Shown here one piece after another: positions 28,197 through 59,202 of a stretch of DNA of 64,000 nt. The DNA is from Candidatus Nanohalarchaeota archaeon (GTDB lineage: Archaea > Nanohalarchaeota > Nanosalinia > Nanosalinales > JAFCCC01): contig JAFCCC010000001.1 in NCBI GenBank assembly GCA_017610385.1, positions 64,001 through 128,000 of the forward strand. The letters run 5' to 3'. Position 1 is the stretch's first letter; each line of letters begins with the position of its first letter. The translations under genes were made by a program, and so were the position numbers. Under the pieces are notes generated by a model. The model had not been told where the DNA came from, made no database searches, and saw only the letters and a list, made by a program, of their open reading frames with translations.

Positions 28197-28248
28197 TTTG
28201 TTCTAAAAGAAGTAACTACCGCTTTGTTCTAAAAGAATTAACTACAGC
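28197..28248. repeat. 26-bp tandem duplication (2 mismatches)
   Basis: TTTGTTCTAAAAGAAGTAACTACCGC followed by TTTGTTCTAAAAGAATTAACTACAGC. Confidence 0.7.
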
Positions 28249-30028: not shown

Positions 30029-30083
30029 TTAGTTTTTATAATATATTCATTAATTTAAATGTTTTGGTTTTGTTCTTCTGGTA

Positions 30084-30599: not shown

Positions 30600-30668
30600 A
30601 TTATGTTATTTGTAACGTAGTTTTTATTATTTCTGATTAGCCTAAATGTTTTTAGAATGTCTTTTTTA

Positions 30669-31502: not shown

Positions 31503-31968
31503 TTTGATTTTGAAATTTTTCTTTCATTAGTTCATTCATTTTTGTGATTCGTTCGTGTTTTAGAGTTATTATTTTAGGAATCTCTGTCTTATTTTTAGTA
31601 AAATAATCATAAATAGCTTCATTTAACGCATCTGCCGCTAAAATAGAACAATGGATTTTTATTTGCGGTAGTCCACCCAGAGCATCAATAATCTCCTTAT
31701 TTGAAAATTCCATTGCAGCATTCAAGGTTTTCCCTTTTACTAAATCCGTAATTATGCTGGACGTAGCTAGGGCTGCTGCACAGCCATATGTTTGAAATTT
31801 AATATCCTTGATAATTTTTTCACCTTTTTCATTTTCAGAAATTTTAATATATAGTTTCATTAAATCTCCACAAACTATATTTCCAACTTCTCCAACACCA
31901 TCTGGATCTTCTATTTCTCCAAAATTATGTGGATGTCTAAAGTGTTCAATTACTTTTTCATTGTACAT
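31495..31968 (-). CDS. iscU: Fe-S cluster scaffold IscU/NifU-N
   Basis: YNEKVIEHF..PHNFG, GNIVCGD, TYGCAAA, LPQIKIHCS. Confidence 0.94.
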   Translation of the reverse strand: MYNEKVIEHFRHPHNFGEIEDPDGVGEVGNIVCGDLMKLYIKISENEKGEKIIKDIKFQTYGCAAALATSSIITDLVKGKTLNAAMEFSNKEIIDALGGLPQIKIHCSILAADALNEAIYDYFTKNKTEIPKIITLKHERITKMNELMKEKFQNQNE

Positions 31969-31987
31969 TTTTTCACCTTTAATTCAT

Positions 31988-37017: not shown

Positions 37018-37253
37018 ACCAATAAAAATAGGATTTGGTAGAATAAAAGAGTTTAGTATATTCGGTGTTTTTCAATCAGGATTTTCCAGAGCAATAGTTA
37101 ACTATATAAATTATTACTACTACTCCATATTAACTACTACTACCTTTCATTATGAAAGATTTTGTTTGAACACATGCTTTTCGTAATGTGTTGTTAGTAC
37201 TTTGAAAAAGATTTGCACGAATTAAAAAATATTGATTAAATGCTTTGATAAAA

Positions 37254-38348
37254 ATGATAACAATTGTTTTAGGAACTAGAGCCGAACTAATTAAGACTTT
37301 TCCAGTTATGAAAGAATTAGATAAAAGAAAAATTAAATGGGAATGGATTCATACTGGTCAGCACAATTTAGATTCATTAATTAAAGATTTTAATATAAAA
37401 AAGCCGAAAATTGTTTTAGATATTCCAATAAGTTCTAGTGGGAGATTTAAAGGCGGAAAATTTTTAGCGGTATTTAACGCTATTTTATGGAATCTTAAAA
37501 CCACAAACAAAATAAGAAAAAGTGTTAAAAAATTAAAATCAAACGTTGTATTGTGCCAAGGAGATACCATGGCTACGGCAGCAACAGTGTTGGCAGGGCG
37601 ATCAATTATATTTAATCGACCAAAAATAGGGCACATTGAAGCAGGAATTAGATCTCATTCATTTACAGAACCTTTTCCAGAAGAAATTTCAAGAAGGATT
37701 TCTGACTTTTTTTCAGATTATTTGTTTGCGCCAACTCAAAAAGCTGTTGAAAATCTAAATAGAGAAAAAATAAAAGGAAAAACCTATTTAACAGGGAATA
37801 CCGTCGTAGATGCGGTTAAAGACATATTATATACTATAGATTTAGAATTTCCTGAAAATTTACGAGCTAAAAAATATATTATTGCCCAAACACACAGATA
37901 TGAAAACATTACATCTCCAGAAAGATTAGGAAGATTTGTAGAGATTATAACAGATTTGCCACACAATATTGTTTTAATAATGCCTGAAAACACTGAAGCA
38001 AAATTAAGGGAATTTGAACTCTGGAATGATTTGCAGAAAGAAAATATTCAAATAAGTGCATTAAAAAACTATAAAGACTTTTTGAAAATGTTATATCATT
38101 CTTCTGGAATAATAACTGATTCCGGAGGAGTGATGGAAGAATGTGCCATTTTAGGAAAACCTTGTCTTGTTTTCAGAAAAAGAACAGAGCGGCCTGAAGC
38201 AATTAATGCTGGCGTGGCCGAGTTAATCATGGAAAAGGGGAGTGATTTTATCTTAGACTTCTTAAACCGAAAACTAAAAAACACAAAGAATCTCTTTGGA
38301 GATGGTAACGCAAGCAAAAAGATTGTTGACGTTATTCAAAAAGAGTAA
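37254..38348 (+). CDS. wecB: UDP-N-acetylglucosamine 2-epimerase (non-hydrolysing)
   Basis: GTRAELIK, HTGQH, QGDT, HIEAGIRS, PEEISR, TDSGG, TERPE, FGDG. Confidence 0.92.
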   Translation: MITIVLGTRAELIKTFPVMKELDKRKIKWEWIHTGQHNLDSLIKDFNIKKPKIVLDIPISSSGRFKGGKFLAVFNAILWNLKTTNKIRKSVKKLKSNVVLCQGDTMATAATVLAGRSIIFNRPKIGHIEAGIRSHSFTEPFPEEISRRISDFFSDYLFAPTQKAVENLNREKIKGKTYLTGNTVVDAVKDILYTIDLEFPENLRAKKYIIAQTHRYENITSPERLGRFVEIITDLPHNIVLIMPENTEAKLREFELWNDLQKENIQISALKNYKDFLKMLYHSSGIITDSGGVMEECAILGKPCLVFRKRTERPEAINAGVAELIMEKGSDFILDFLNRKLKNTKNLFGDGNASKKIVDVIQKE

Positions 38349-38421
38349 ACTCAAAAACGAATTAAACCATTCTGATGCACTGCATTTTTTATAAAATTGT
38401 GTACAATATATTGAGATAAAA

Positions 38422-39072
38422 ATGGAAGTAATAATTCTTTGCGGAGGTACTGGAACAAGATTAATGCCGCTAACTAAGAATAAGCACAAAGCTTTGGTCG
38501 AAGTTGATGGCAAACCAATAATTGAATGGCAACTTCGGTGGTTACAAAAATATGATATTGAAAAAAAGAATGTTATTTTGGCGTGCGGTCATATGTTAGA
38601 GAGCTTAAAAAACTATTTAGGAAATTCTGTAAAGTATTCTATAGAAAAAGAGCCCTTGGGCACTGGCGGAGCATTAAAACAAGCAATGAGATTGATAAAA
38701 GATGATGAATTCTTGGTTTTTAATGTTGATGATTTAAACAATATTGATTTAGGTGAATTAAAAAGAATTGGTTCTAATTCTATCTGTGTTGCAAACCCAC
38801 GTTCACCTTTTGGCGTCGTTGAGCTTCAAGGAAATAAGGTTACAGGATTTATTGAAAAGCCGTTGTTAGAGGTTTGGGTTTCTATGGGAATTTATTTGCT
38901 TAACAAAGATATTATCAAAATGCTTCCAGATAAAGGCAGTCTAGAAAAAGAGGTTTTCCCAAAGATTGATTTAAAGGCCTACAAACACGAAGGTTATTGG
39001 CACACAATAAACAATATTAAACAAGCACAAGCGTTTGACGCAGAAGCATTTAAAAAAGCATTAGATTTTTAA
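38422..39072 (+). CDS. Sugar-phosphate nucleotidyltransferase
   Basis: ILCGGTGTRLMPLT, EKEPLGTGGA, FIEKP. Confidence 0.9.
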   Translation: MEVIILCGGTGTRLMPLTKNKHKALVEVDGKPIIEWQLRWLQKYDIEKKNVILACGHMLESLKNYLGNSVKYSIEKEPLGTGGALKQAMRLIKDDEFLVFNVDDLNNIDLGELKRIGSNSICVANPRSPFGVVELQGNKVTGFIEKPLLEVWVSMGIYLLNKDIIKMLPDKGSLEKEVFPKIDLKAYKHEGYWHTINNIKQAQAFDAEAFKKALDF

Positions 39073-39123
39073 TTTATTTTAAAGAGAGATCATATTATTA
39101 ACTGTTTCTGTCATAATGAAATT

Positions 39124-40203
39124 ATGAAAGTTTATTTGGCGTATCCCTGGATATTTCCAGATTCTCCGTATTATAAATATTTGATTGGAAACCCACCAGA
39201 AGGCGTGGAATATTTGAACGGGGCAAAACAAAATGGAGTTATTACCAATAGAAGAAAGTTTGTGTTTTCTAATAAACTAAAAAATATAATAAGAAAGTCT
39301 TTATCTTTAGCTAATCTTTCAATTCCAAATGCTCATAAAATTAAAACAAAAGAGAATTATGATTTAATTCACTGTGCACATTGTTTGTGCAAAAATAATT
39401 CTCCTTGGGTGGCAGATTTTGAATCTGTCTGGCAGTTTTATGTCGGAAAGAAAACAAAATGGGCAAAAAATAAAGTCAAAAAGATCTTACAAAACGAAAA
39501 CTGCAAAAAAATTATGGCATGGACAGAAAAGACAAAACAAGATATAATTACAGAGTTTCCTGAAATAAAAGACAAAGTTGAAGTTGTTTATCCTGCTGTG
39601 CCTTTACAAAAACTAAAAAAGAAAGAAAATAAGAAACCCACTATTTTGTATGCAACACGCTATTTTTGGATTAAGGGTGGTTTAATTGCGCTGGAAACTT
39701 TGCGCAGATTAAAAGAAAAATATGATATTAATATTATTTTTATTTCTGATATTCCTAAGGAAATAAAAGAAAAATATAAAGACATTAAAATCCTGGATTT
39801 GGTTCCACAAAACAAATTATTTGAATATTATTCAAAATCAGATATTTTCTTTTATCCATCTCTTATGGATACTTTTGGCTTTTCTTTGTTAGAGGCCATG
39901 TCTTTTGGATTGCCAATAGTTACAGTAAACACAGAAGCAACAAAAACAAGAAGAGAAATAATAGAAAATGAAAAAACTGGTTTTATCTTTGACGCCAATA
40001 AAGTAAATTACAAAAATCTAGGTAAACTTGAAAATAAGATTATAAGTCAGTTGGTTAAAGATCTATCCAAATTAGTTGAGAATCGGAAATTAAGACAAAG
40101 GATGGCACATAATTGTTTAAAACTATTTAAAAATGGAAAGTTCTCAATAAATAAACGGAATGAAAAACTAAAAAGAATTTATGATGGGGCTGTTTTTAAA
40201 TGA
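39124..40203 (+). CDS. Glycosyltransferase family 4
   Basis: DIFFYPSLMDTFGFSLLEAMSFGLP. Confidence 0.88.
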   Translation: MKVYLAYPWIFPDSPYYKYLIGNPPEGVEYLNGAKQNGVITNRRKFVFSNKLKNIIRKSLSLANLSIPNAHKIKTKENYDLIHCAHCLCKNNSPWVADFESVWQFYVGKKTKWAKNKVKKILQNENCKKIMAWTEKTKQDIITEFPEIKDKVEVVYPAVPLQKLKKKENKKPTILYATRYFWIKGGLIALETLRRLKEKYDINIIFISDIPKEIKEKYKDIKILDLVPQNKLFEYYSKSDIFFYPSLMDTFGFSLLEAMSFGLPIVTVNTEATKTRREIIENEKTGFIFDANKVNYKNLGKLENKIISQLVKDLSKLVENRKLRQRMAHNCLKLFKNGKFSINKRNEKLKRIYDGAVFK

Positions 40204-41090
40204 AAATTTCAGTGATTTCTACAGTTTTAAATGAAGAAAAAAACATATCTCAGTTTATGAAATCAATATTAAATCAATCCAAAAAGCCAGATGAAATTAT
40301 AATCGTTGATGGTGGCTCAAAGGACAAAACCTTTGAAATTCTCAGAGAATTTTCACAAAAGAATAAACTATTTGCAGTTTTTCAGGAAAAAGGTGCTAAT
40401 ATTTCTAGAGGAAGAAATATTGCAATTAAAAAAGCGAAGGGGGATATACTTATTGTTGCTGATGCGGGATGTGTTGTCGATAAAGATTGGATTAAAAACA
40501 CTATTGCATATTTTCCAGAAGCAGATGTTGTAGCAGGAAATTACAAGGCAATAACAAAAAACAATTTTGAATATTTTCAAAGCCTTTTGGTCGTTAAGTC
40601 AGTAGACCGGCCATCAAGAATGTCCTCTAGAAATATTTCTTTTAAAAAAGAATGTTGGAAAAGTGTGGGAGGATACCCTGAAGATTTTCTGACCGGAGAA
40701 GACACAAAATTTAATTTAATGTTTCAGAGAGCAGGATATAAAATAAAAATAAACCCAAAACAAGATGTTTCTTGGGAAATGAGGCCGACTCTGAAAAAAT
40801 TTGCAAGACAGTTTTATCTTTATGGAAAAGGAGATAGAAAACATGGAAATTTAATTGAAATGAAAAAGAATCTTGCAATGGTTTCAGGATTTTGGATCTA
40901 TTTTGTTTTGTTAATTTTGGCGGCTATCTTTAATTTAAAGGCATTTCTAGTATTGCTGGATTTGCCTGTGTTTGTGTTATTTGTATTTGGAATAAAATAC
41001 AGTATAAAAACAAAGAAAATCTCGGCATTATTCTGGATGCCCTTGTTATTGTTTGTTAAACGAGTAAGTTATATTTTGGGGGCAAGTTGA
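40200..41090 (+). CDS. Glycosyltransferase family 2
   Basis: ISVISTVLNE, VDGGSKD, RGRNIAI, ADAG, GEDT. Confidence 0.9.
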   Translation: MKISVISTVLNEEKNISQFMKSILNQSKKPDEIIIVDGGSKDKTFEILREFSQKNKLFAVFQEKGANISRGRNIAIKKAKGDILIVADAGCVVDKDWIKNTIAYFPEADVVAGNYKAITKNNFEYFQSLLVVKSVDRPSRMSSRNISFKKECWKSVGGYPEDFLTGEDTKFNLMFQRAGYKIKINPKQDVSWEMRPTLKKFARQFYLYGKGDRKHGNLIEMKKNLAMVSGFWIYFVLLILAAIFNLKAFLVLLDLPVFVLFVFGIKYSIKTKKISALFWMPLLLFVKRVSYILGAS

Positions 41091-41091
41091 A

Positions 41092-42045
41092 ATGATTGTT
41101 AATCTCATCGGAAACAGTTTTGACGAGAATTCTGGACAAGGAATTTATCGTTATTCTGCACAATTGTATAAAAATCTAAAGTTTATCGGATTAAATGTCC
41201 ATAAAAATGCCTTGGGAGATATAAACCATGTTCAACAACCAGAACTCATCTGGAAGGTCCTATTTAAAAAAAAGGTTGTTACAACCTTTCACGATCTTAT
41301 GCCTATATTTATTAAAGAAAGAAAATTGTTCTTTAGATTTTTTTTCTTTTTTTCCAGTTTGGTTGCAGCCATCAAATCAAAGAAAATCATAGCAGTATCT
41401 GAATCTACAAAAAAAGATATTCTAAAATATTTTCCGTTTACAAAAAATAAGATTTGTGTTATTTATGAGGGTGTGGATCATAAACGATTTTATCCTTTAA
41501 AAAGAAAGAATAACACAAATTTTACAGTAGGATATGTAGGGGGATTAGGCAAAAGAAAGAATGTTGAAAAGATATTAGAAGCTGCTCAGTTATTTAAAGA
41601 AGATAATAAAATAAAGTTTGTTATTGCGGGAAAGGGACCAGAATTAAATTCTTTAATTGAATTAAAAAAGAGATTAGGACTAAAAAATGTGCAATTTGCT
41701 GGTTTTATTCCTGAAAACAAGTTAAATGAATTTTATAATTCTTTAGACGTGTTTGTTTTTCCTTCTTTCTATGAAGGATTCGGACTTCCCGTTTTAGAGG
41801 CAATGGCTTGTGGGGTTCCAATCATAACTTCGAATGTAAGTTCCATGCCGGAATTGGTAGGCGCTTCAGGAAGGTTTATTAATACCAAAAATTCTAATGA
41901 GGTGGTAAATGAAATAATACAAATTTTTAAAGATGAGTCCTTAAAAGAGGATCTACATAAAAAGGGATTAAACCGAGCCAAAGAATTCACTTGGGAAAAA
42001 TGTGCTAAAGAACATTTAAAAATATATGCAGAATTAATAAAATGA
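41092..42045 (+). CDS. Glycosyltransferase family 4
   Basis: FVFPSFYEGFGLPVLEAMACGVP. Confidence 0.92.
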   Translation: MIVNLIGNSFDENSGQGIYRYSAQLYKNLKFIGLNVHKNALGDINHVQQPELIWKVLFKKKVVTTFHDLMPIFIKERKLFFRFFFFFSSLVAAIKSKKIIAVSESTKKDILKYFPFTKNKICVIYEGVDHKRFYPLKRKNNTNFTVGYVGGLGKRKNVEKILEAAQLFKEDNKIKFVIAGKGPELNSLIELKKRLGLKNVQFAGFIPENKLNEFYNSLDVFVFPSFYEGFGLPVLEAMACGVPIITSNVSSMPELVGASGRFINTKNSNEVVNEIIQIFKDESLKEDLHKKGLNRAKEFTWEKCAKEHLKIYAELIK

Positions 42046-42178
42046 TTATAAAAATAGATTTTATCGAATTATATTAAAACACTTACAACGATTAAAAGAA
42101 AGTAAATCCATCCAAAATAAACTAATCATTCTTAGATGCATGATTCGTTTAGAAAAATACTTGCGCTGGTGAGAAAAT

Positions 42179-42436
42179 ATGCAAAAAATAGTTTCTATAT
42201 ACATCTCCACATGGAATCGTGCAGAACATCTTAAAAATATTCTAAACAATGTAGCACAAGAAGCTAAGAACTTAGAAAAATATTTGCAGATTTATATTTC
42301 AGACAATGGTTCAACAGACAATACAGAAAAAGTAGTAAAATTATTTAAAAAAAGTAGTGTAAAAAGAGTAAGAGAATTCTTATGGGAAAAATGTGCTAAA
42401 GAAACTTTGGTAGTGTATAAGGGGATTTCGAAATGA
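42179..42436 (+). pseudogene. Chimeric remnant: GT2 N-terminus fused to a GT4 C-terminal tail
   Basis: VSIYISTWNRA..ISDNGSTDNT (GT2) joined directly to REFLWEKCAKETL (GT4 tail). Confidence 0.7.
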
Positions 42437-43227
42437 ACTTTAATAAAATTATAAAAGACTATTTTAGATTAATAAAAGAGGGGGAAACTTTTAAAGATAA
42501 AGGCATTATCCTTGTTTATTTCGTACAAATGCCCATAAGACAAATTATTAAGCGTTTTAGAAAGAATTATGCGATGCGATTAATTTCTAATGTAAGCTTA
42601 AAAAATAAAGATGGGAGATATTTTTGTGGGGACAATATTTTTGCGGCATGGTGTTGTAGCACCTTGGGGGAAGAAAATGTAAGTTCGAATATCGTCTTAA
42701 ATTCTGGGGTATTTGTAGATGTTGGGGCAAATGTTGGAAAATATACTGTTAAACTTGGAAATCAATTAAAGAATAAGGGAACTGTAATAGCAGTAGAGCC
42801 AGAACCAGTAAATTTCAAAGCATTACAAAAAAATGTAAAATTAAATAACCTCGAAAATGTTTTTTTGGAGAATGTTGCTTGCTCCGATTCAAACGGATTT
42901 GCAGAATTTTATATTGATGTTATGGGAAATTATGGGGGCGCTCACTCCTTAATCAAAAAAACAAAGAATAAAATAAAAGTTAAAACTCGAAGATTAGATC
43001 ATATCATAGATAAACTAAAAATGGAGAATATAGACTTAATTAAAATAGATGTTGAAGGCGCAGAGGCAAACGTACTGAAAGGTGCTTCGAACGTTTTGAA
43101 GAAATATCATCCAAAAATTATCTTTGAATCCTGGAATAAAAAACAACTAGAAACCGTGAAAAACGTATTAAAACCATTTAATTATAAAATTGAAAAAATT
43201 GATAAGGAGAATTATTTAGCGTGTTAA
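42433..43227 (+). CDS. FkbM-family methyltransferase
   Basis: FVDVGANVGKY, AVEPEP, IKIDVEGAE. Confidence 0.9.
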   Translation: MNFNKIIKDYFRLIKEGETFKDKGIILVYFVQMPIRQIIKRFRKNYAMRLISNVSLKNKDGRYFCGDNIFAAWCCSTLGEENVSSNIVLNSGVFVDVGANVGKYTVKLGNQLKNKGTVIAVEPEPVNFKALQKNVKLNNLENVFLENVACSDSNGFAEFYIDVMGNYGGAHSLIKKTKNKIKVKTRRLDHIIDKLKMENIDLIKIDVEGAEANVLKGASNVLKKYHPKIIFESWNKKQLETVKNVLKPFNYKIEKIDKENYLAC

Positions 43228-44435: not shown

Positions 44436-45911
44436 TTATTTTCTGACCGGGGTAAATTTCCTGATCATTTCTTTGTCTTTTTTATCAAATCCTTTTAGTA
44501 AATACATTACCGAAAAATAAAGTACTATAGCTAAAAAAATAATTACAACCATCTTCATGATTTTGGGTAAAGAAGTTTGTAAAATTAAAATGGTTGAAAA
44601 AGCCATAATCGCAGAAGAAATAATTGGCTTAAAAATGTAACTTAAGTTTAGTTTTATTTTTTTTCTTATAAACTTAATAGAAAGTAGGAATAATAATATA
44701 AGAGAAGTAACTGTGGCTATTGCGGCTCCATTAATACCCCATAACGGAATTAAGAAATAATTCAGAATTACATTTAAAATTGCTGCAATGAATGTATACT
44801 TCATTATCTTTCTAGGCTCATTTATTCCTGCAATAAAGCTCCTAGAAATCACAATCAAAGAAGTGAAAATTGTTCCTATACTTAAAATTCTAAATGCGGG
44901 AACTGCTGCCAAGTATTCTGAAGTAAATAAAATCTGAATAATTGGTTTAGCTAATAAAAAAGATCCTGTGGCCGCTGGAAGAATGAAATAAATAGAATAT
45001 TTTAATGATCGATTAAAAATCTCACCCAAACTTTTTTTATCTTTTTTTGCATTTAATTGAGAAATCATGGGAAATAATGCTACTGCTAATGCAGCCATTA
45101 CCATACTTAGCAGACCTACGACAGGTAGAGCAACATTATAATAACCAACATCTTTCGCTGTTAAAAAATAACCTATAAAAAACGAATCAGTCCATCCTAA
45201 AAACGTTGCTGCAATCCCTGCCATAAAAAGTGGAACTCCAAAACTAAGTAGTTTTTTTGCTAAGTTAAACTCTGCTTTTTTGAAAATTATGGGTGTTGTG
45301 TGTTTGTAAGCTACAACAAGAAAAACGAACATCACAAAAAAACTCAAAGAATAAGCCCAAGTTGCTCCGAGAATCTTGAAACCTAAACTGAAAAATAAAA
45401 TTGTAAGTAAAAACTTTGAACCTTTTTCAATTACACCAGAGAAAGAAAGAATTCCCATCTTTTGAAATCCTGTGAGTACTCCACTAAAAAGACCGCTAAA
45501 TAAACTAAAAAATACTGCTAATGATCCGATTTTGAAAGGAATTACTGCTAAGGGATTATGAAAAACATTTATTGCAAAAAAGCCTGAAAGAAAAAATAAT
45601 AAAACTGAACCTAAAGTCGCTGTGAAAACGGTAATTGGTGCGGCAGTGGAAAAAATCGTATGAATCTCTTTCTTTTGAGAAATGTATTCAGAAGTATATT
45701 TGGTTATTGCACTTGGAAGTCCTAAAGAAAAAAAGGTTGTAAAAAATCCGACCATCATTAAAACCAAAGAGAATACTCCATATTCTTCTGGTCCAAGACC
45801 TCTGGCTAAAATTATCTTATAAAAAAAAGAAATAAAATATCCTGCAAGTGAACCCATAAAAAGTAAGCTGGTCCCTTTGGCTATTTTTACAGTTAGGTTC
45901 TCTGGGTTCAT
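44436..45911 (-). CDS. Oligosaccharide flippase (Wzx/MOP family)
   Basis: ARGLGPEEYG, DSFFIGYF..VGYYNVA, LIPLWGINGAAIAT; many TM helices. Confidence 0.9.
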   Translation of the reverse strand: MNPENLTVKIAKGTSLLFMGSLAGYFISFFYKIILARGLGPEEYGVFSLVLMMVGFFTTFFSLGLPSAITKYTSEYISQKKEIHTIFSTAAPITVFTATLGSVLLFFLSGFFAINVFHNPLAVIPFKIGSLAVFFSLFSGLFSGVLTGFQKMGILSFSGVIEKGSKFLLTILFFSLGFKILGATWAYSLSFFVMFVFLVVAYKHTTPIIFKKAEFNLAKKLLSFGVPLFMAGIAATFLGWTDSFFIGYFLTAKDVGYYNVALPVVGLLSMVMAALAVALFPMISQLNAKKDKKSLGEIFNRSLKYSIYFILPAATGSFLLAKPIIQILFTSEYLAAVPAFRILSIGTIFTSLIVISRSFIAGINEPRKIMKYTFIAAILNVILNYFLIPLWGINGAAIATVTSLILLFLLSIKFIRKKIKLNLSYIFKPIISSAIMAFSTILILQTSLPKIMKMVVIIFLAIVLYFSVMYLLKGFDKKDKEMIRKFTPVRK

Positions 45912-46136: not shown

Positions 46137-46889
46137 ATGAGTATCAAACTGACCAATCAAAAAACGATTTTACCAAATGTTTTTGTAGTTGGCGCTACAC
46201 GTTGTGGAACCACTTCTTTATATCAGTACCTGGGAGAACATCCAGAAATTTATAAGCCACCTTATAAATGTGCGGAATTATTCCTTACAGAAAAAATAGA
46301 TTACAAAAAAGCTCGATTACTCTATAATAAAAGTACAGACGCCCTACGCCTAGATTGTAGCCATTATTTTCATCTTGAATCTGCTGCTGAAAGAATAAAA
46401 TCCGCGGTTCCTGATGCGAAAATAATCATTGGACTTAGGCCCGCTAAAGAATTGTTTCTTTCAAGTTATATTTATCGCCAAAATAAGGGAGAAATTCCTA
46501 AAAAGCTTACCTTTGAGGAGTACACACATACGTATATGGATAAAGGAAAGTGGTATGTAGTAGAACATTTAAAATATGACCGCAACATAAATTTTTGGAT
46601 TTCTCGATTCGGGAAAAAAAATGTGTTAATATTTCAATTTGAAGAACTTGCTACTGACGCACCTCAACTATGTAAAAGAATCTTTAAATTTTTGGGGGTT
46701 GATAATACTTTTAGGCCACACATCTACCAATATAACAAACGTGATAGCAACATTCCCCGTACACGTTGGTTAAATAATTTCGTTAAAAGACTACCTCTAA
46801 GCTGGCGGCTAAGAGTTAAAGAGATGTTTCCAATCTTAGAAAAAATATATTCGGAAGTAATTTATTCTAAAATGGAAAAAGCGGAATAG
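46137..46889 (+). CDS. PAPS-dependent sulfotransferase
   Basis: PNVFVVGATRCGTTSLYQYLGEHPEI (5'-PSB loop), AKIIIGLR, FEEL..IFKFLGV. Confidence 0.85.
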   Translation: MSIKLTNQKTILPNVFVVGATRCGTTSLYQYLGEHPEIYKPPYKCAELFLTEKIDYKKARLLYNKSTDALRLDCSHYFHLESAAERIKSAVPDAKIIIGLRPAKELFLSSYIYRQNKGEIPKKLTFEEYTHTYMDKGKWYVVEHLKYDRNINFWISRFGKKNVLIFQFEELATDAPQLCKRIFKFLGVDNTFRPHIYQYNKRDSNIPRTRWLNNFVKRLPLSWRLRVKEMFPILEKIYSEVIYSKMEKAE

Positions 46890-46894
46890 ATTTT

Positions 46895-47419
46895 CTAGTA
46901 ATTGCATTCCTTTAAAAATGAAATAATTTCAGTTACAGATTTGTTTGGTGCTTCTTCATAAGTATTTACAATTATTTCTGGATTTGTGGGCGGTTCGTAA
47001 GGAACATTTTCTGAAACACCTATAAAGTTTTCAATTTCGCCCCCAAGGGCCCTTTTGTAAAGCCCCTTAATGTCTCTTTTAATGCAATATTTCAAAGAGC
47101 AGTTTACATAAACTTCTATAAATTCATCGCCCAACCTTTGCCTTGCAAATCTTCTAGACACTGCAAATGGAGAAATTATTGGAACTAATATGAAATCATA
47201 ATTTTCTTTTTCTTTGGCACAAATTTCGGCAATGAGTCTGTTATTTTCTTTAATATCTTCTGGAGTAAATCCTAAATGTGTATGAAATTTCGATCTAACT
47301 ACATCTCCGTCTAGTACAAGTGTTTTTTTGTGTTTTAGAAATGGGTGTTTTATCAAGGCATTAGAAATTGTTGTTTTCCCTGATCCAGAAAGTCCGGTGA
47401 ACCAAATTATTTTTCCCAT
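46895..47419 (-). CDS. cysC: Adenylyl-sulfate kinase
   Basis: IWFTGLSGSGKTT, LDGDVVR, RDIKGLY, PYEPP. Confidence 0.93.
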   Translation of the reverse strand: MGKIIWFTGLSGSGKTTISNALIKHPFLKHKKTLVLDGDVVRSKFHTHLGFTPEDIKENNRLIAEICAKEKENYDFILVPIISPFAVSRRFARQRLGDEFIEVYVNCSLKYCIKRDIKGLYKRALGGEIENFIGVSENVPYEPPTNPEIIVNTYEEAPNKSVTEIISFLKECNY

Positions 47420-49632
47420 TACAAATCACTTACAAAAACTTTTTCCCCTGTGTTAATCTTGTTTATAATCAATTGAGAGATTTCTGGTCTCATAAACCAT
47501 TCAGGGGGTTTTTTTCCTTGCATCAATAGTTTTCTAGCATGAGTTCCTGAAATGTGTTTTTTTTGAGTCTCAGGGTGATCTAAATAATCATCTTCATGTA
47601 TGTGTTTGTTTTCCAATGTTGAATAAAATACCTTGTTATATTTTATAGGAATAATTCCTATTTCCTCTTTTCCAAATTGGTCAAATATTTTGTGAGATGC
47701 CTGCGGATCATAGTAATTTTTAACTCCTGTGTGATCTCTGCCTACAATAAAGTGACTGCATCCAAAATTTTTTCGAACTAATGCAGTAAAGACCGCTTCT
47801 CTCGGTCCTGCGTATCGAGAATATGAAGAAAATGTTGAAAAAATTACCTTACCTTTCGGATAAATTTCGTTTATCATTTTTTCATAAGTTGTAATTATGG
47901 CACTTGCCTCAAAATCACCCTTTTTCTTTTTTCCTATAATGGGGTGAACAAATAGACCATCACACAAAAATTTCTTCATGGCATCCATTTGAATAAACTC
48001 ATGAGATCTATGAATAACATTTCTAGTATGAAACGCAACAATTTTACTCCATCCTCTCTCAGAAAAAATTCTTCTAATTTGTCTGGGTGTTAAATTATAT
48101 AACTGAAAACCATTGTTTCTTCTTTTAATTAGATCTATTTTTCCTGCTAAAAAATACTGCCCCGAATCAAAAAAAGTTTTAACTCCAGGGTGATTCAAAT
48201 CAGTTGTTCCAAACCATTTTTTTGCTGTGTCTTGCATATTTACTTGATAAATTTGTTCTAAATGTAATAGTGCGTGCGGTTGAGAATCCTTGTTATAAAC
48301 AAGTAAAACATCTTGACCGTCCTGTAAGCCCTCGATGGTTTTAGTCTGTAATATTATTGGCATAGGCCACACAACACCGTTTTTAAGTCTCATTGTGTGC
48401 AAAACAGACATTAGATTTTCTTTATTCATAAAACCTTCTAAAGGGCTAAATGCTCCACAGGCAATTTGTTCAACATCCATAAGATTTGTTTCATCAATGC
48501 TAATTTTTGGCATTGTGAGCATTTGTTGTGAATCAAATCCTTTTTTTATATATCTCTCAATTAGTTTGCCTCCGTGGGGTGGCACCAACAAATTGTCTGT
48601 AGTATCTGTTATATTGAATTCCGATAAATCTTTGTTTTTATCAAATTCACGTATTAGTGCAGAAAGCATATTCAAAGTTTCTATGGGATAGTTCCCGATT
48701 GCAGTCTCTTTTGTTAGAACAAATCCTGTTGCACCGTCAAATAAAGTATTTATGACATCGTTAACTTCTGATTTTGAGGGTTTACGACATACAGACATAT
48801 TTTCAAGGGTATTCGTAGCAACATAAACTTCTTTATTCAATTCATTTGCTTTTTTTAAAATGCTTTTTTGAACAAAGGGTAGTTTCTGCAAAGGTACTTC
48901 TCTGCTTAAATCTCCTCGATCTATTAAAATTCCTTCAGAAAACTCTAAAAGCTCTTCTAAATTCTCGAGAGCTTCTCTGGTTTCAATTTTGGTTAAAAAT
49001 GTTGCATCACAATATAATTTCTGAAATTCCAGAAGATCTTTTTTATTATGAATGAAAGAAAGACTAAATTGTTTTACTCCGAGTTTTTTTGCGAGTTCTA
49101 TTGCAAATCTGTCTTTTTCACTAAAGGTTGGAGCATCTAACTTTGGTTCTAAATGAGCTCCTTTTTGTCCACCAATCTTACCGCCCAATAAAACAGTACC
49201 TTCTACAAAACCTTCATGAATTGTTGAGGTGTTACTTATTTTAATTAATGCGGAATTAAAATCAAGGGAAATCAGTGTCCCTTCTTCAAGTTGTTCAACA
49301 ACAGTTAAAGGTCTCAGAAAAAATGTTTTGTTGTCTGTCTCTACTTCTCGATTGTATATTCGAATTTTATCTCCTTCTTCGAAAGTGATTTCATGGACAT
49401 TTCCTGTCCGTATTTGGCGCCCTTCTGTATCTAACATAATTGGTACACCATATGTTTTTAATTCTATAATTTTCTTTTCAATGTCTTCTTTAGAGGTATG
49501 AGACAAATTTATGCGAAAATAATCTACAGATCTATCTTTTAATTTCTTGAGAACTTCGGGGTTAAATGATGCTTCTCCAATTGTAGCAATTATTTTTATG
49601 TTCTTAATCATAATTATCTCATGTGCATTCAT
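47419..49632 (-). CDS. Pyruvate-kinase-like domain fused to ATP sulfurylase (Sat)
   Basis: N-terminal ATIG, RINLSH, KIET, RGDL, ETAIG; C-terminal PHGGKL, GAFSPLEGFM, FHTRNVIHRSHE, YAGPREA, HFIVGRDH, WFMRPE. Confidence 0.88.
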   Translation of the reverse strand: MNAHEIIMIKNIKIIATIGEASFNPEVLKKLKDRSVDYFRINLSHTSKEDIEKKIIELKTYGVPIMLDTEGRQIRTGNVHEITFEEGDKIRIYNREVETDNKTFFLRPLTVVEQLEEGTLISLDFNSALIKISNTSTIHEGFVEGTVLLGGKIGGQKGAHLEPKLDAPTFSEKDRFAIELAKKLGVKQFSLSFIHNKKDLLEFQKLYCDATFLTKIETREALENLEELLEFSEGILIDRGDLSREVPLQKLPFVQKSILKKANELNKEVYVATNTLENMSVCRKPSKSEVNDVINTLFDGATGFVLTKETAIGNYPIETLNMLSALIREFDKNKDLSEFNITDTTDNLLVPPHGGKLIERYIKKGFDSQQMLTMPKISIDETNLMDVEQIACGAFSPLEGFMNKENLMSVLHTMRLKNGVVWPMPIILQTKTIEGLQDGQDVLLVYNKDSQPHALLHLEQIYQVNMQDTAKKWFGTTDLNHPGVKTFFDSGQYFLAGKIDLIKRRNNGFQLYNLTPRQIRRIFSERGWSKIVAFHTRNVIHRSHEFIQMDAMKKFLCDGLFVHPIIGKKKKGDFEASAIITTYEKMINEIYPKGKVIFSTFSSYSRYAGPREAVFTALVRKNFGCSHFIVGRDHTGVKNYYDPQASHKIFDQFGKEEIGIIPIKYNKVFYSTLENKHIHEDDYLDHPETQKKHISGTHARKLLMQGKKPPEWFMRPEISQLIINKINTGEKVFVSDL

Positions 49633-49774
49633 TTTTAAATAATTATAAAATGGTGGTGTCTTTTTTGGTTCTTAAACTGTCTATTGCAGTAGAGGCTGGC
49701 TTATAAAAATGAAAACGCCAGTAGATTCTTCGCACATTAATAAATTATTTAAACATTCATTCTAATTTCAAACT

Positions 49775-54925: not shown

Positions 54926-55897
54926 TTAAAGCAACAAAAGAGGACCAATAATACATAATACCACTTCTAGCGTGATAATACAAAACACAACTTTCTTTTC
55001 AGTTGCTTTTTTGCCCATAAACACGTGAGTTAAAGAGTAAATTTTTGGGTATGGTCTGTGCAAAGTTCCGTCTTTTTGTGGAATTCCAAAGGATTCTGCC
55101 TTTAATTTGCTTCTAAGTTTTAGTGCTCCCTCTATGAAGTACGGAATAAACAACAATAAAGCCAATTTCTCCATGTTTCCTAAAATAGCCACAATGGCGA
55201 TAAGAGCACCTATTGGATATGTTAAAGAGTCTCCTGGGAAAACTTTGCTCGGGTATTTATTAAATGTTAAAAATCCCAATAAACAGGCGACCATTGAGAA
55301 AGCGATTGCAGATAAACCAATTTGCCCTTGGGAATATGCAATGGAACCCATGGTAGATAAAATAACCGTTCCCATCAATGCTTCTAAGCCATTTAACCCT
55401 GCAAGTATATTAAAGGCATTGGACGCACCAATAATCGCAATTGGGATAATAACCAGAGCATATAACCAACTTAAATCTACAGAACCAATAAATGGAAGAT
55501 TCATAATTGAATTACCCGCATTAATTACAATCAACGGAATAGCAATTGGGATAGTTAATAAAGGCTTTTGCCACTGTTTCAATCCTTTTTTCCAACCCAA
55601 AATATCATCTACAAATCCAATAAATCCAGCAAGCAATACAGAAACCAATACTGCGAAAACTACAACCAAATTAGCGTCTGTATGAAAAATAAATGTCTTA
55701 ATAAACACGTAACCAAGCAACGCAATAGCAAAAGACACTAAAACAGCTATGCCACCTGATTCTGCAACCAACGGTTTATCTAACTTATTCATATCTTTTC
55801 CAGTTAGGTTAGAACGTCTAGCGACCTTAATCCAAGATTTAGTAAAAAATAAACTTACAAAGAATAAAACAACATAAAGTATAATTTGCCCCCACAT
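54926..55897 (-). CDS. aglH: UDP-GlcNAc:dolichyl-phosphate GlcNAc-1-phosphotransferase (AglH/MraY-like)
   Basis: GKDMNK..VAESGG, GFVDD, NAFNILAGLNGLE, NKYPSKVFPGDS. Confidence 0.88.
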   Translation of the reverse strand: MWGQIILYVVLFFVSLFFTKSWIKVARRSNLTGKDMNKLDKPLVAESGGIAVLVSFAIALLGYVFIKTFIFHTDANLVVVFAVLVSVLLAGFIGFVDDILGWKKGLKQWQKPLLTIPIAIPLIVINAGNSIMNLPFIGSVDLSWLYALVIIPIAIIGASNAFNILAGLNGLEALMGTVILSTMGSIAYSQGQIGLSAIAFSMVACLLGFLTFNKYPSKVFPGDSLTYPIGALIAIVAILGNMEKLALLLFIPYFIEGALKLRSKLKAESFGIPQKDGTLHRPYPKIYSLTHVFMGKKATEKKVVFCIITLEVVLCIIGPLLLL

Positions 55898-55948
55898 TTT
55901 AACACCCTCTGGTACAATACTTCATAACAGCACAACACTCAAGATCCT

Positions 55949-56620
55949 TCATTTCTCTAAAATGTAAATTCCTCCAAAATTTTTGATTATCTTAAAATTT
56001 GTACGTGAAAGTAGATCTTGAAGTTCTATATGAGAATATCTTGAAACAGTAACCAAAAAACCACATCCGCCAAAAGTACGATAAATTTTAGAAGTCAACA
56101 ACCACAATGCGGAATGTAATCTATGCTTCATGGAAGGCGCTTTTAGTGCAAACTGCACCGCACAACGTCCGTTTTGAGCAAGATTCTGATAAAATTTTTC
56201 CAAAGTTCGTAAAGACAAATAGGCTGGCAAATGATAAAAAGTCTCAAGACAAATAATTGCATCTACTGGTTGTTCTAACTTCAATTCGGACAAATCTTGC
56301 AAAATAAGACGATAATTTTTAAAATTATGATTTTTTAATACCGTGTCTGCTTTTTTTAAGGCGGTAGGAGACACATCAACACCCAAAACTCTGTAATTTA
56401 AACCAAGAAGCTGAGTTGCAATTCGCGCCAAGGGACCGATTCCAGCATCAAGAATTGCGCCATCTTGTTTGATTTTGGGTAAAATTTCCTTTTTTATGAT
56501 TTCTATATCTGAATCCGTATGCATCTGAATAACCTTGGCGCTCGCAGTCTTTCCTAAAACTACGTGTTCTGATCGTTGTTTTTTTGACTTTTCTTCCCAC
56601 ACTGTAGAATACCATTTCAC
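55949..56620 (-). CDS. Class I SAM-dependent methyltransferase
   Basis: ILDAGIGPL, GVDVS, DAIICLETFYHLP. Confidence 0.82.
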   Translation of the reverse strand: MKWYSTVWEEKSKKQRSEHVVLGKTASAKVIQMHTDSDIEIIKKEILPKIKQDGAILDAGIGPLARIATQLLGLNYRVLGVDVSPTALKKADTVLKNHNFKNYRLILQDLSELKLEQPVDAIICLETFYHLPAYLSLRTLEKFYQNLAQNGRCAVQFALKAPSMKHRLHSALWLLTSKIYRTFGGCGFLVTVSRYSHIELQDLLSRTNFKIIKNFGGIYILEK

Positions 56621-59202
56621 CCCGAATCCACCTCGTAAGTTAGAATCTTCCAGATTTTTACAAATCCGTTATCAAAAACTTTTTCAAATTCTGGCATTTC
56701 GTTTCCGTCTCTTAAATACAATTTGACTAAATTTGCATTAACAGATTCTTTAGGAACATAAACCAAACCAGACATTCCATAGTATGGATCAAAATGAGGA
56801 CAGCCGGGAATTGTTGGCGAGTCCTCAGGAACTGCGAACTTTTTTATCCCATTTTTCGAACAAAAAGTACTAAAATGTGCTGTGTTTCCTGCATAATCTC
56901 TGAAAATTGGTGCAGCAGTAACAGTTAAAGATGTATTTGAAATCAAAACAGGGATAAAAATCTTTGGAGAATTTGTTACACAGTTTGCACCCGATTTAAC
57001 ACAATAAGTTAGGTACGTTTTTCCTTCTGATTGTGCTTGTTTTTCAAACTGAAAATTTTGTAAAACAGTATACTTAGAATTATTTCTATTGTGAATTTGA
57101 GTAACCGCAGAATATTTTCCAATCATAGTATAATCTAATACAATATAATTAACTCCAAAATCCTTAAGCCACCCCAACCACGAATCATATTCCTGGTCAC
57201 TAAAAAAATCAGCTAGTCTTTCATGAATTAAGTCTCCATTATCAAAAGTGTATGTGTTTCCACCCCCATCTGCGAATGCAGGTCTAGAGCCTATAACTTC
57301 AAACCAGTATCCATAATCCCACCAAGATAAAACAGTAGAATTTGCGGGCGTTTCAAGTCTTAAGTAATCTAAACTTTCCATCCATGCTTTGTTAGGAGAA
57401 CCACCAATTCCCTTCGCCATAGAGTCTGCATTAACTATATTGATTCTAATGGTTGGGATTAATATTAATGTCAAAATAATTAAAAAAACCCCAATTTTTG
57501 CATAATTTGCTTTAATTGATTTAATTTGTTTAGAGATAAACTCTCCGAGTTGAGTTATCAGTAGTGAATTTTTAATCTCAGTAATTAACATAACAAAGCC
57601 GTATCCTGCAAAGAATGCAACCGGCTGAGCAGTCAAGAAAATAATTCTTGCTTTTTGGGCTGACCCGTATAAAGCAGACAATAACCACAACAAAAGCAAG
57701 ATATAATACCACTTAAACTCAATTTTACGAGTAATTTTTTCTGAATTAAACAAGGAAAGCAAAATAATGCTCGTAATCATTATTATAAGATATGGAGTAA
57801 AAATTAAGCTGAAGTTCTGAACTGTGATATTTTTCATGAGCATAAATAACATTAAAATCAATGCAAACATGGAAGCGAAGCTTATTCCATAAACCGTCCT
57901 CGCAGAAACTTCATCTTTCTTTTTAAATTTGCGATAAAACATTAATAAAATCAATGTTCCCATCACTGTTAAGCCAACTAAAGCAAAAGTCCAAGGACTA
58001 AAATATTCTGAAAATTTAGATAAAAATGAAGATAAATGTGCTTTTGCTCCAAAAGCGCCTAACTGACTTACAGTTTGCATCGCAGATGCAGGATTATTCT
58101 CCGCAACCGTGTTTCCAACAACTCCTGACGTTGAACGACTTTGTGACGCCAGACGAATTAATCCAGTAGTATATTTAGACATGTTTTGAGAAAATAATGG
58201 CATTAAAAGAAGTATGAAAAGACCAATTACACATAAAACAGGAATGAGATAGGGTAATTTTTTCTTGGAAACCCCTTTGTATTTGCCCGCGAGGTATCTT
58301 ATCCAAATTAAACCTAAAATGCCCATAGAAGCTAAAAATAAGGAACTAGGAATTCTAAATGACCCACTACTCAAAGCAAATGCCAAGAAATTCCCTATTA
58401 ATAATGTTGGAGTAAAGGCGCAAACCAGTGCTTCTGTGTCTTCATTAAACAATAAAACAATGAATGCTGTAAGCGGATACAATAAAAATAAGTGTTGTGT
58501 TCCCCCCCAGGAAGTCATTGAAATCGCTAAAAAGATTCCAGAAAGAATTCCTGCGCCCCAGGATTTTCTCTTCCATGCACGAACAATAAAATAAATTGAT
58601 AAAAGCATTAAAACGCCTGCAATAGCTTCTTTTTCAAACCAGCCAGCAGAAGATCTGTGTAAAACCGCCGCAGAGGTGGCTAAGAAAAAAGAAGAAGAAA
58701 GACCGACCCATTTATTAGAAACTTCTTTGCCAATAAAATACATTACAACAACCATTAAAGCCCCCATTAATGCTGGATAAATTTGGGTCCAGCTTAAAAA
58801 ATCAATATTTGTCAACCAATTGAAAAATTTAAACAAATACGCAGGAATTGCACTTTCTCCTGCGAAAAAACCAAAGGAAGTTGGAGCAGAATATGGAAAA
58901 GACCTTAAAAAATCTACAACTGGAACTGCGCCATATTTAACAATACTATAACTCATTTTAGAAATCTGATAAGGGTCCAAAGCCTGAAGATATTGTATAG
59001 ATTTTAAAGGAATCAGTCGAATCTTCATTGCAAGGTAAAAGATTAATAATAATAATGCTGGCGGGAGCGCTTTCCAAAACGTGTTCTTTACCCAACGCCA
59101 TTTCACCTTTTGAATAAAGTTCATAAGCATAATTTCAAATTGGAAGTTAAGTTTAAATGCTTTCATTAAGTTGTTAATAAAAAGATGACAAAAACGAATC
59201 AA
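56617..59202 (-). CDS. aglB: Oligosaccharyltransferase AglB (STT3); start probably near 59124
   Basis: ALDPY, multi-TM N-terminus, TVAEN, SWWDYGYW, DYTMIGK. Confidence 0.93.
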   Translation of the reverse strand: MIRFCHLFINNLMKAFKLNFQFEIMLMNFIQKVKWRWVKNTFWKALPPALLLLIFYLAMKIRLIPLKSIQYLQALDPYQISKMSYSIVKYGAVPVVDFLRSFPYSAPTSFGFFAGESAIPAYLFKFFNWLTNIDFLSWTQIYPALMGALMVVVMYFIGKEVSNKWVGLSSSFFLATSAAVLHRSSAGWFEKEAIAGVLMLLSIYFIVRAWKRKSWGAGILSGIFLAISMTSWGGTQHLFLLYPLTAFIVLLFNEDTEALVCAFTPTLLIGNFLAFALSSGSFRIPSSLFLASMGILGLIWIRYLAGKYKGVSKKKLPYLIPVLCVIGLFILLLMPLFSQNMSKYTTGLIRLASQSRSTSGVVGNTVAENNPASAMQTVSQLGAFGAKAHLSSFLSKFSEYFSPWTFALVGLTVMGTLILLMFYRKFKKKDEVSARTVYGISFASMFALILMLFMLMKNITVQNFSLIFTPYLIIMITSIILLSLFNSEKITRKIEFKWYYILLLLWLLSALYGSAQKARIIFLTAQPVAFFAGYGFVMLITEIKNSLLITQLGEFISKQIKSIKANYAKIGVFLIILTLILIPTIRINIVNADSMAKGIGGSPNKAWMESLDYLRLETPANSTVLSWWDYGYWFEVIGSRPAFADGGGNTYTFDNGDLIHERLADFFSDQEYDSWLGWLKDFGVNYIVLDYTMIGKYSAVTQIHNRNNSKYTVLQNFQFEKQAQSEGKTYLTYCVKSGANCVTNSPKIFIPVLISNTSLTVTAAPIFRDYAGNTAHFSTFCSKNGIKKFAVPEDSPTIPGCPHFDPYYGMSGLVYVPKESVNANLVKLYLRDGNEMPEFEKVFDNGFVKIWKILTYEVDSG

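Follow-up and report, generated by a model that had tools for sequence, protein, structure and literature searches.

Within a 64,000-nucleotide stretch of the genome of a Candidatus Nanohalarchaeota archaeon (GenBank assembly GCA_017610385.1, contig JAFCCC010000001.1, positions 64,001 to 128,000; hereafter the window), one minus-strand gene at 47419–49632 joins a pyruvate kinase (PK)-like domain in frame to ATP sulfurylase (Sat), beside genes for adenosine 5′-phosphosulfate (APS) kinase (cysC) and a sulfotransferase. The feature is real, conserved and uncharacterized, and combines known kinds of element, namely a PK paralogue and a Sat fusion. Its N-terminal part is predicted to be a catalytically competent, unregulated member of a distinct PK subfamily that has the A and B domains only, and the C-terminal two thirds have the features of an ordinary-type ATP sulfurylase. 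The domain architecture is conserved, the catalytic residues are retained, and the module is genetically linked to Sat, CysC and sulfotransferase; we infer PK activity with phosphoenolpyruvate (PEP) as donor and ADP as acceptor, and a gain in flux to 3′-phosphoadenosine 5′-phosphosulfate (PAPS). On a narrow balance of probability, the PK-like domain would be a PEP-driven ADP-to-ATP module dedicated to PAPS synthesis.

In such a scheme, the Sat part would convert ATP and sulfate to APS and pyrophosphate (PPi), and the translationally coupled CysC would convert APS and ATP to PAPS and ADP. The PK-like domain would use PEP to turn the ADP released by CysC back to ATP, so that where PAPS is made ATP would stay high and ADP low, and a dead-end CysC-ADP-APS complex would be relieved. 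PAPS would then feed the neighboring sulfotransferase for sulfation of a surface or N-linked glycan. The assignment is supported by the invariance of the catalytic PK residues across 239 subfamily members, by the fusion or adjacency of the module to cysC, which encodes the ADP-producing step, and by the separate housekeeping PK that large genomes keep.

A parallel exists in vitro. According to the available text of PMC9885120, a PAPS synthase cascade produces almost no PAPS unless a PK/PEP ATP-regenerating system is present, the cause being that ADP and APS hold APS kinase in a dead-end complex; PK removes the ADP. The set of activities (Sat, APS kinase and, as predicted here, PK) is the same, but the in vitro cascades are engineered mixes of unrelated commercial enzymes, whereas the present system is one natural operon or polypeptide. 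If the assignment is correct, PAPS synthesis in nature comes with a built-in ATP-regenerating enzyme, the same trick as is used for in vitro PAPS production, and the enzymatic sulfation of glycans and drugs would benefit directly from so compact a PK-Sat(-CysC) enzyme.

Architecture of the fusion protein

The fusion gene is one uninterrupted 737-residue frame with an ATG start. Pfam assigns a PK barrel (PF00224) to residues 10–319 (189 bits against a cut-off of 30), a PUA_2 domain to residues 351–504 (48121–48582; 153 bits) and the ATP-sulfurylase catalytic domain to residues 512–723 (47464–48099; 254 bits). With the alignment and an AlphaFold2 (AF2) model taken into account, the PK-like domain covers residues 10–332 (48637–49605) and is composed of the A barrel with the inserted B domain, and residues 333–350 (48583–48636) form an interdomain linker, the length of which ranges from 14 to 38 residues across the family (counted between positions 332 and 351 of the window protein). 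PK_C (PF02887), the C-terminal α/β domain that forms the PK tetramer and binds effectors, gave no Pfam match in the fusion protein at E ≤ 0.01, and in the AF2 model the PK part ends at about residue 332, running into the linker and PUA_2. The Sat half is above the NCBIfam cut-offs (NF003166, 424.5 against 387; TIGR00339, 359.4 against 323). The NCBIfam PK models all match the fusion, yet below their cut-offs (best NF004491, 236.7 against 432; TIGR01064, 226 against 306.4). The model for bifunctional Sat/APS kinase, NF004040, scores 277.7 bits, below its cut-off of 669, CysC being a separate gene here. A first-pass annotation of this DNA, made from the letters and their translations, had described PK A/B domains that lack the C-terminal regulatory domain and run in frame into a complete Sat, and this description is borne out.

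The AF2 model, computed from an alignment of 44 sequences, has a pLDDT of 91.8 and a pTM of 0.88, with a linker that is continuous but of lower confidence. Foldseek superposes the model on ATP sulfurylase 8a8d_A (TMt 0.94) and on PKM2/rabbit PK over about 342 columns at a root mean square deviation of 2.5–2.8 Å, and a phmmer search with the fusion matched 102 PK sequences of the PDB at E ≤ 1e-10. In an alignment to the solved PK structure 2e28, the four altered motifs noted in the first-pass annotation are all present in the translation: DTEG for DTKG, IDRGDL for VARGDL, ATNTLE for ATQMLD and LTKETA for LSGETA.

As for the homo-oligomeric ATP sulfurylases of Methanothermococcus thermolithotrophicus (8a8d) and Thermus (1v47), with which it shares 39–40% identity and a TM-score of 0.93–0.94 to target, the Sat half contains PUA_2 and ATP-sulfurylase domains, HxxH and GRD motifs (HRSH and GRDHTG), and scores that pass the NF003166 and TIGR00339 cut-offs. 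It differs from them in the N-terminal PK-like extension and in residues 534–544, which read FHTRNVIHRSH where the usual sequence is FQTRNPxHRAH. Among the genome loci compared (L014–L093), all 22 that are PK-fused have His in place of the Gln of the QxRN motif, as do 2 of the 58 unfused ones, both of them L020-type relatives within the fused clade. QxRN, HxxH and GRD are the active-site motifs of Sat, and the Gln presumably contacts sulfate/APS. The fusion of consecutive sulfate-activation enzymes has a counterpart in the bifunctional PAPS synthases (Aquifex aeolicus 2gks and animal PAPSS1/2), and the Sat half matches 2gks_A. Unlike these enzymes, the fusion has an extra N-terminal PK-like domain from outside the PAPS pathway proper, and in the window CysC is a separate, overlapping gene.

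The extreme N terminus is less well defined. Residues 1–9 have pLDDT below 50, and conservation within the family begins near residue 13. The second in-frame ATG encodes Met8, and the string TTTATAA lies 11–17 nucleotides upstream of the first ATG (49611–49650). The true start of the fusion could be Met8; TTTATAA-like strings are expected to be frequent by chance at about 30% G+C.

Distribution and ancestry of the fusion

In a search of 5.8 billion proteins, 7999 candidates were scored and 1342 matched, of which 120 are listed. The search for the combined architecture of PK and ATP sulfurylase, suggested in the first-pass annotation, returned PF00224, PF14306 and PF01747 in a single chain for all 120 proteins among the matches listed, at 47–62% identity. 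The architecture is common to more than 100 protein clusters, some of which also have CysC fused. Among the 119 listed relatives (P0006–P0124), 99 are 701–800 residues long, and 18 are of at least 890 residues and carry an APS kinase domain (PF01583) as fourth domain, so that these also have Sat and CysC in one chain, as in the bifunctional PAPS synthases. In the source databases, the fusion proteins are named either "sulfate adenylyltransferase" or "pyruvate kinase".

On genome contigs, with one genome per species, 22 complete fusion genes and one cut gene were found among the 80 best Sat loci. The archaeal records that hold the fusion are labeled Woesearchaeota, Pacearchaeota and Nanoarchaeia, and those of the Candidate Phyla Radiation (CPR) are labeled Parcubacteria, Staskawiczbacteria and Saccharibacteria; further bacterial labels are Gammaproteobacteria, Methylococcaceae, Acidobacteriota, Chloroflexota, Rhodospirillales/Nisaea, Planctomycetaceae/Pirellulales, Cytophagia and Nitrospina. 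Planctomycetes and Alphaproteobacteria are among the holders. The notion that two genes were joined by a sequencing or assembly error can for practical purposes be dismissed: PK and Sat meet in frame in the same way in every one of the 120 listed proteins, in 23 independent genome records and on 27 metagenome contigs, and AF2 models the linker as a continuous segment.

In a Sat-domain tree (quick IQ-TREE; 81 rows, comprising all loci and the window), the 23 fused Sats all fall within one starred set of 25 rows (99*), the other two rows being the unfused L020 and L037. The tree fits a fusion that arose once, spread broadly by horizontal transfer and lost its PK half at least twice. The patchy occurrence over distant phyla points to horizontal transfer, and the sulfation cassette is an accessory that the window genome probably acquired by this route. 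The fusion is not inherited in the window's lineage, since none of 69 other genomes of the same phylum-level group (all "same order") has PK and Sat in one frame; a stand-alone PK-type match is found in 31 of them (25–36% identity) and a stand-alone Sat in 8. The order holding locus L015 has the fusion in 6 of 151 sampled genomes. In 197 genomes of the class of G080, neither the fusion nor a short PK was found, only stand-alone Sat and canonical-length PKs (470–634 residues, 29–35% identity), and a short PK was likewise not found in five genomes with Sat-only loci (L045, L020, L031, L043 and L036).

At locus L070, on a contig of Candidatus Kuenenia stuttgartiensis, a PK-type match of 32% identity is cut by the start of the contig and lies about 850 nucleotides upstream of a same-strand Sat. 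This may be an unfused neighbor arrangement of PK and Sat.

The PK half belongs to a subfamily without a C domain

Beyond what the first-pass annotation described, the fusion is widespread and patchy, and it represents one of several forms of a larger PK subfamily that lacks the C domain and is tied to sulfation clusters. Free-standing members and members adjacent or fused to cysC are found as well, nearly always within such clusters. When the PK part was used as query against proteins of 189–604 residues, the nearest relatives were free-standing barrel-only proteins: 108 of the 119 listed (P0126–P0244) have 300–440 residues and 39–53% identity, and the others include three PK-APS kinase fusions and seven cut PK-PUA_2 pieces. 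The phylogeny against housekeeping PKs proposed in the first-pass annotation sets this subfamily apart. A tree (quick IQ-TREE) of a subsample, with 31 fusions out of 120, 35 short forms out of 119 and the full set of 10 canonical PKs, splits the canonical PKs from the rest at 100* and needs at least three changes between the fused and unfused state.

Catalytic residues were compared in an alignment of the 120 fusions, the 119 short forms and the 10 canonical PKs, five of which came from the genome's relatives and five from large bacteria that hold the fusion. Residues Arg40, Asn42, Ser44, His45, Asp68, Thr69, Arg75, Lys157, Lys215, Glu217, Asp241, Thr273 and Glu309 of the window protein are invariant or nearly so in all three groups (249 sequences). 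We equate these with rabbit-muscle PK residues Arg72, Asn74, Ser76, His77, Asp112, Thr113, Arg119, Lys206, Lys269, Glu271, Asp295, Thr327 and Glu363. Because the catalytic residues are invariant or nearly so at a mean identity of only 51% in the PK part, the domain is under catalytic constraint.

The conservation bears on whether the domain could be a non-catalytic module, i.e., a pseudoenzyme that serves Sat as a scaffold, for oligomerization or as a nucleotide sensor. Such a role would agree with the loss of the C domain, the scores below the family cut-offs, an unusual Glu20 in the window protein (described below), and the two members of the fused Sat clade that do without the domain. However, the metal ligands, the catalytic Lys, both Arg residues and the Thr/Glu pair are invariant over 239 sequences of about 40–60% identity, and the domain also exists as a free-standing protein of 330–380 residues, which makes a non-catalytic role very unlikely.

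Compared with canonical PK (EC 2.7.1.40; Geobacillus stearothermophilus 2e28 and rabbit muscle/PKM2), the PK half has the same A barrel and B lid, and the catalytic, metal-binding and cation-binding residues align. It differs by the missing C (allosteric/tetramer) domain, an identity of about 30–36%, its position in a separate clade (100*), its fusion to Sat and location in sulfation clusters, and by four fixed substitutions, Glu70, Gln73, Asp238 and Asn274, in place of Lys (Gln), Glu (Lys), Ala and Gln. Position 70 is Glu in 118 of 120 fusions and 115 of 119 short forms, against Lys, Gln, Ala or Pro in canonical PKs; position 73 is Gln in 119 of 120 and 109 of 119, against Glu or Lys; position 238 is Asp in every fusion (120/120) and every short form (119/119), against Ala in 10 of 10 canonical PKs; and position 274 is Asn in 116 of 120 and 106 of 119, against Gln in 10 of 10. 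The resulting subfamily signature is DTEGxQxR / IDRGDL / ATN. Thr307 and Lys308 are typical of the fused clade, where short forms mostly have Ala/Ala and canonical PKs Ser/Gly.

Positions 70 and 73 correspond to residues 114 and 117 of rabbit PK, in the A-B hinge loop beside the K+ site. In the available text of PMC4374775 and PMC8835810, the known hinge signatures at positions 113/114/117/120 are T/K/E/T for K+-dependent and L/Q/K/(L,I,V) for K+-independent enzymes; the hinge of the window protein and its family, T/E/Q/T, matches neither. The same partial sources indicate that the K114Q variant of rabbit PK retains full kcat (PMC8835810) and that PKs of Crenarchaeota in which residue 117 is Ser, Gln or Arg show activity that does not depend on K+ (PMC4374775). 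Since changes at both positions are tolerated in real PKs, as far as these texts describe them, Glu70 and Gln73 would suggest altered cation handling rather than lost activity.

Being without the C domain, below the curated full-length cut-offs and outside both hinge signatures, the PK half is filed here as a putative new subfamily of the PK superfamily rather than as "a pyruvate kinase". A textbook enzyme family thereby gains a so far unstudied branch that lacks the C domain, is predicted to be unregulated and has an active-site signature of its own. An enzyme without the C domain would escape regulation, which would suit a dedicated helper and do harm in a glycolytic valve. A short "pyruvate kinase" family, NF005234 (PRK06739), similarly has a PK barrel of comparable length and no C domain, as judged from its model length of 352, but the fusion scores 146 bits against a cut-off of 564 and is not a member; we know of no link of the NF005234 family to sulfation.

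In a search of 1.84 billion cluster representatives with a profile of the short forms, the E/Q/D/N signature is present in 114 of the best 150 representatives, with APS kinase, CBS and a type-I phosphodiesterase domain as further fusion partners. The PK-like module is fused to CysC alone in P0141, P0198, P0243, P0331 and P0308, and the occurrence of fusions to CysC alone, to Sat and to Sat plus CysC fits a role centered on ADP. Among single proteins, P0265 (478 residues) combines the PK-like domain with CBS, and P0377 (786 residues) combines a type-I phosphodiesterase/nucleotide pyrophosphatase with a PK-like domain of signature R/E/D/H. P0362 (1051 residues), with two PK domains and adenylate kinase, was considered as a supporting fusion and rejected, as it has the canonical signature and lies outside the subfamily.

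Linkage to sulfation in other genomes

A sulfotransferase gene is located within two genes of the fusion at 13 of 21 genome loci with complete fusion genes, and the remaining neighbors are polysaccharide genes. The metagenome loci derived from the short-PK alignment number 80, of which 66 bear the signature and 14 are of canonical type. In 27 of the 66 signature loci the PK is fused in frame to Sat (in two cases also to CysC), and in one more Sat is adjacent, on a 1.4-kb contig. A separate cysC lies at most 90 nucleotides downstream, with no Sat, in 11 loci, and 0.8–2.1 kb away in 5; in the other 22 neither is found in the available flank. For the 47 signature loci with at least 1.5 kb of downstream sequence, the corresponding numbers are 24 fused, 7 with cysC within 90 nucleotides, 5 with cysC at 0.8–2.1 kb, and 11 with neither. 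By contrast, Sat or cysC is near none of the 14 canonical-type metagenome loci, a contrast that is descriptive, since the loci are not phylogenetically independent.

Eight stand-alone loci were annotated. In L126, L127 and L139, a TauE-family permease gene is followed by those for a sulfotransferase, the short PK and CysC, and L171 has the same order minus cysC. In L127 and L171 the sulfotransferase gene is directly upstream of the short PK, with a spacing of 12 nucleotides or an overlap. The TauE/SafE-family permease may serve the cassette by carrying sulfate or anions. At a fused locus on a Rhodospirillales chromosome (L026:4559–6922), the gene two positions upstream of the fusion encodes a 787-residue protein with PPDK_N and a PEP-utilizing mobile domain but no C-terminal PEP barrel, i.e., another PEP/phosphohistidine-type enzyme within a sulfation cluster.

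Three DPANN genomes, G422 (L196), G307 (L197) and G335 (L198), have a stand-alone short PK of the fused-clade type adjoining a sulfotransferase. These short PKs have the signature EQDNTK or EQDDTK and intact catalytic residues, and the gene order in L197 is that of the fused locus L015 minus the Sat half. ATP sulfurylase was found in none of the three genomes, the completeness of which is not stated, and no Sat remnant was found in the three regions around the short PK. APS kinase had no match in G335 and G422, and in G307 gave one 23-bit match that covers profile positions 4–51 only. Enolase is present in two of the three. The short PK without Sat and CysC may be a generic PK, or something that serves the sulfotransferase. 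That the PK half is retained intact after loss of Sat and CysC fits a generic, self-sufficient activity such as PK, and the three genomes amount to a natural experiment on the real role of the module.

Searches of full texts, which did not extend to subscription journals and supplements, turned up neither a PK-Sat fusion nor a PK located in a sulfation cluster, in line with the earlier remark that the fusion is not known as a characterized enzyme. In the accessible parts of PMC8091004 and PMC11537232, DPANN genome papers count PYK and Sat as separate traits. In the annotation of DPANN and CPR genomes, the gene is scored as "pyruvate kinase", which implies a glycolytic ATP gain, and as "sulfate adenylyltransferase", which implies sulfur metabolism, when it actually marks a surface-glycan sulfation cassette.

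PEP supply and alternative functions

The source genome of the window (G000) is 788 kb in size and 93.5% complete. GAPDH is present on contig C10. Enolase occurs in 64 of the 70 genomes of the group (27 of 28 high-quality genomes), with G000 counted among the 70 and itself without a match, and phosphoglycerate kinase (PGK) in 57 of 70 (26 of 28 high-quality). G000 seems to have lost lower glycolysis, or the genes lie in the missing 6.5%.

The five large bacterial genomes with the fusion that were inspected all hold a canonical PK of 484–538 residues as well, which scores 328–377 bits with PF00224 against 216–248 for the fused copy. Five small DPANN/CPR holders have no PK other than the fused copy, and four of the five have enolase. 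Of the 151 genomes sampled from a DPANN order, 142 have enolase and 13 a PK-type match, of which 6 are fusions, 3 short forms and 4 canonical. PEP is thus commonly available in this order, PK is usually dispensable, and most PKs are of the sulfation type.

These data also address whether the PK half is an ordinary glycolytic PK that was fused by chance, without mechanistic meaning, and that serves as the cell's own PK in small genomes. G000 and all five small holders have no other PK-family gene, four of which have enolase, and the short form survives without Sat and CysC in three genomes, all as expected for a glycolytic enzyme. We nevertheless consider this explanation quite improbable. The 100* branch divides the subfamily from canonical PKs, the allosteric C domain is missing, and the subfamily occurs in sulfation clusters, as opposed to 0 of 14 canonical-type loci. 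The five large genomes have a canonical PK in addition to it, and a PK is absent from 138 of the 151 genomes of the DPANN order, although enolase is present in 142. Because the large genomes keep a canonical PK and 9 of the 13 PKs in the DPANN order are of the sulfation type, the fusion is not a housekeeping PK; and as enolase and PGK were not found in G000, there would be no glycolytic flux to finish in that genome.

Other observations weigh against PEP-driven regeneration of ATP. No Enolase_C, PGK, PEP-utilizers_C (PEP synthase/pyruvate phosphate dikinase) or second PK was found in G000, and PEP would have to be imported, or its source would have to lie in the unassembled part. The fusion is below every NCBIfam PK cut-off, and in the literature searched no report was found of activity for a PK that lacks the C domain; the only match for "truncated pyruvate kinase" is, in the available part of PMC6997586, an unrelated deletion mutant. 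The PK half is dispensable, since L020 and L037, members of the fused Sat clade, lack it. Conversely, the module is not strictly dependent on Sat and CysC, since three DPANN genomes keep the short PK without them. The fixed, non-canonical Glu70, Gln73, Asp238 and Asn274 are near the active-site cleft or hinge and could mean a changed substrate, as could Glu20 (49573–49575) in the segment TIGEAS of the window protein. At this position, 234 of the 249 sequences compared have Pro (TIGPxS; fusions, 109/120; short forms, 115/119; canonical PKs, 10/10), and the Glu is peculiar to the window protein.

The first-pass annotation had offered two functions, a built-in PEP-driven ATP regenerator or a repurposed kinase acting on another substrate, such as PPi. 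The regenerator is the better supported of the two. A repurposed kinase we regard as fairly unlikely. Here the EQDN subfamily would have kept its phosphoryl-transfer machinery for another donor or acceptor tied to sulfation, and would serve the sulfotransferase step rather than Sat and CysC; 3′-phosphorylated adenine nucleotides (recycling of 3′-phosphoadenosine 5′-phosphate, PAP), GDP for CysDN-type sulfurylases and sulfuryl-group chemistry are examples of what it could act on, and PK is reported to be able to transfer a sulfuryl group from sulfoenolpyruvate. The four fixed residues, present in 114 of the best 150 cluster representatives, the scores under all PK family cut-offs and the lack of a visible PEP source in the host genome argue for this alternative, and so do the clade-specific Gln-to-His change in QxRN of the partner Sat, the sulfotransferase gene directly upstream in L127 and L171, and the short PK kept beside a sulfotransferase in three genomes without Sat, where APS kinase is represented only by the partial match in G307. 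However, all residues for PEP/ADP chemistry are kept, substitutions at 114 and 117 are tolerated in real PKs as far as the available texts go, and no result points to a candidate substrate. Fusion with Sat and CysC is moreover the dominant arrangement, and enolase, and hence PEP, is available in four of the five small holders and presumably in all large ones.

The variant of the first-pass annotation in which PPi is the substrate does not stand. The Sat step is unfavorable and is pulled by PPi hydrolysis, as estimated from textbook free energies. A PPi:ADP phosphotransferase would conserve PPi and remove this pull, which would make it thermodynamically unattractive, and the extra residues are acidic; this role was rejected. 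A profile search of G000 did not find a family-I pyrophosphatase.

A further form of the argument, which we think distinctly unlikely, takes the EQDN subfamily as a new sulfation-pathway enzyme that works with the sulfotransferase and is not a PEP:ADP kinase at all. It could re-energize PAP-derived nucleotides, or transfer a sulfuryl or phosphoryl group to a sulfation-specific acceptor, and Asp238, Asn274, Glu70 and Gln73 would then form a new substrate or metal site. This would explain both the module beside a sulfotransferase without Sat and CysC and its presence in a genome without a visible PEP route.

Gene neighborhood in the window

The cysC gene (46895–47419, minus strand) encodes a 174-residue APS kinase with the P-loop GLSGSGKT, and belongs to both PF01583 (Pfam APS_kinase, 156 bits) and TIGR00455 (169.9 against 138.7). 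Its ATG overlaps the TAA stop of the fusion (TAATG). The sulfotransferase gene (Sulfotransfer_1 in Pfam, 250 residues; 46137–46889, plus strand) is convergent with cysC and the fusion, and is the sole sulfotransferase match in the genome with the queries used. The identities, order and orientation of these genes agree with the first-pass annotation.

The glycan-sulfation setting described there is also supported by the surrounding genes. A 491-residue Wzx/MATE-type polysaccharide flippase identified by Pfam is encoded at 44436–45911 (minus strand), and a set of glycan-building genes, for UDP-GlcNAc 2-epimerase, a nucleotidyltransferase, GT1/GT2 glycosyltransferases and an FkbM methyltransferase, is found at 37245–43227 (plus strand). 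On the other side of the fusion, a Glycos_transf_4 (PF00953) phosphosugar transferase, a methyltransferase and an STT3/AglB-type oligosaccharyltransferase are encoded at 54926–59202 (minus strand), and the joint occurrence of these three marks an archaeal protein-glycosylation cluster.

An 85-residue open reading frame at 42179–42436 (plus strand) matches only the first third of Glycos_transf_2 and shares 4 nucleotides (42433–42436) with the beginning of the FkbM methyltransferase gene; it may be the remnant of a truncated glycosyltransferase. Upstream of the glycan cluster, at 28238–33142 (minus strand), are three genes, which encode a 596-residue protein with GILT/DsbA-type thiol-oxidoreductase domains and, side by side, a NifU-like scaffold and a class-V aminotransferase of the cysteine desulfurase type.

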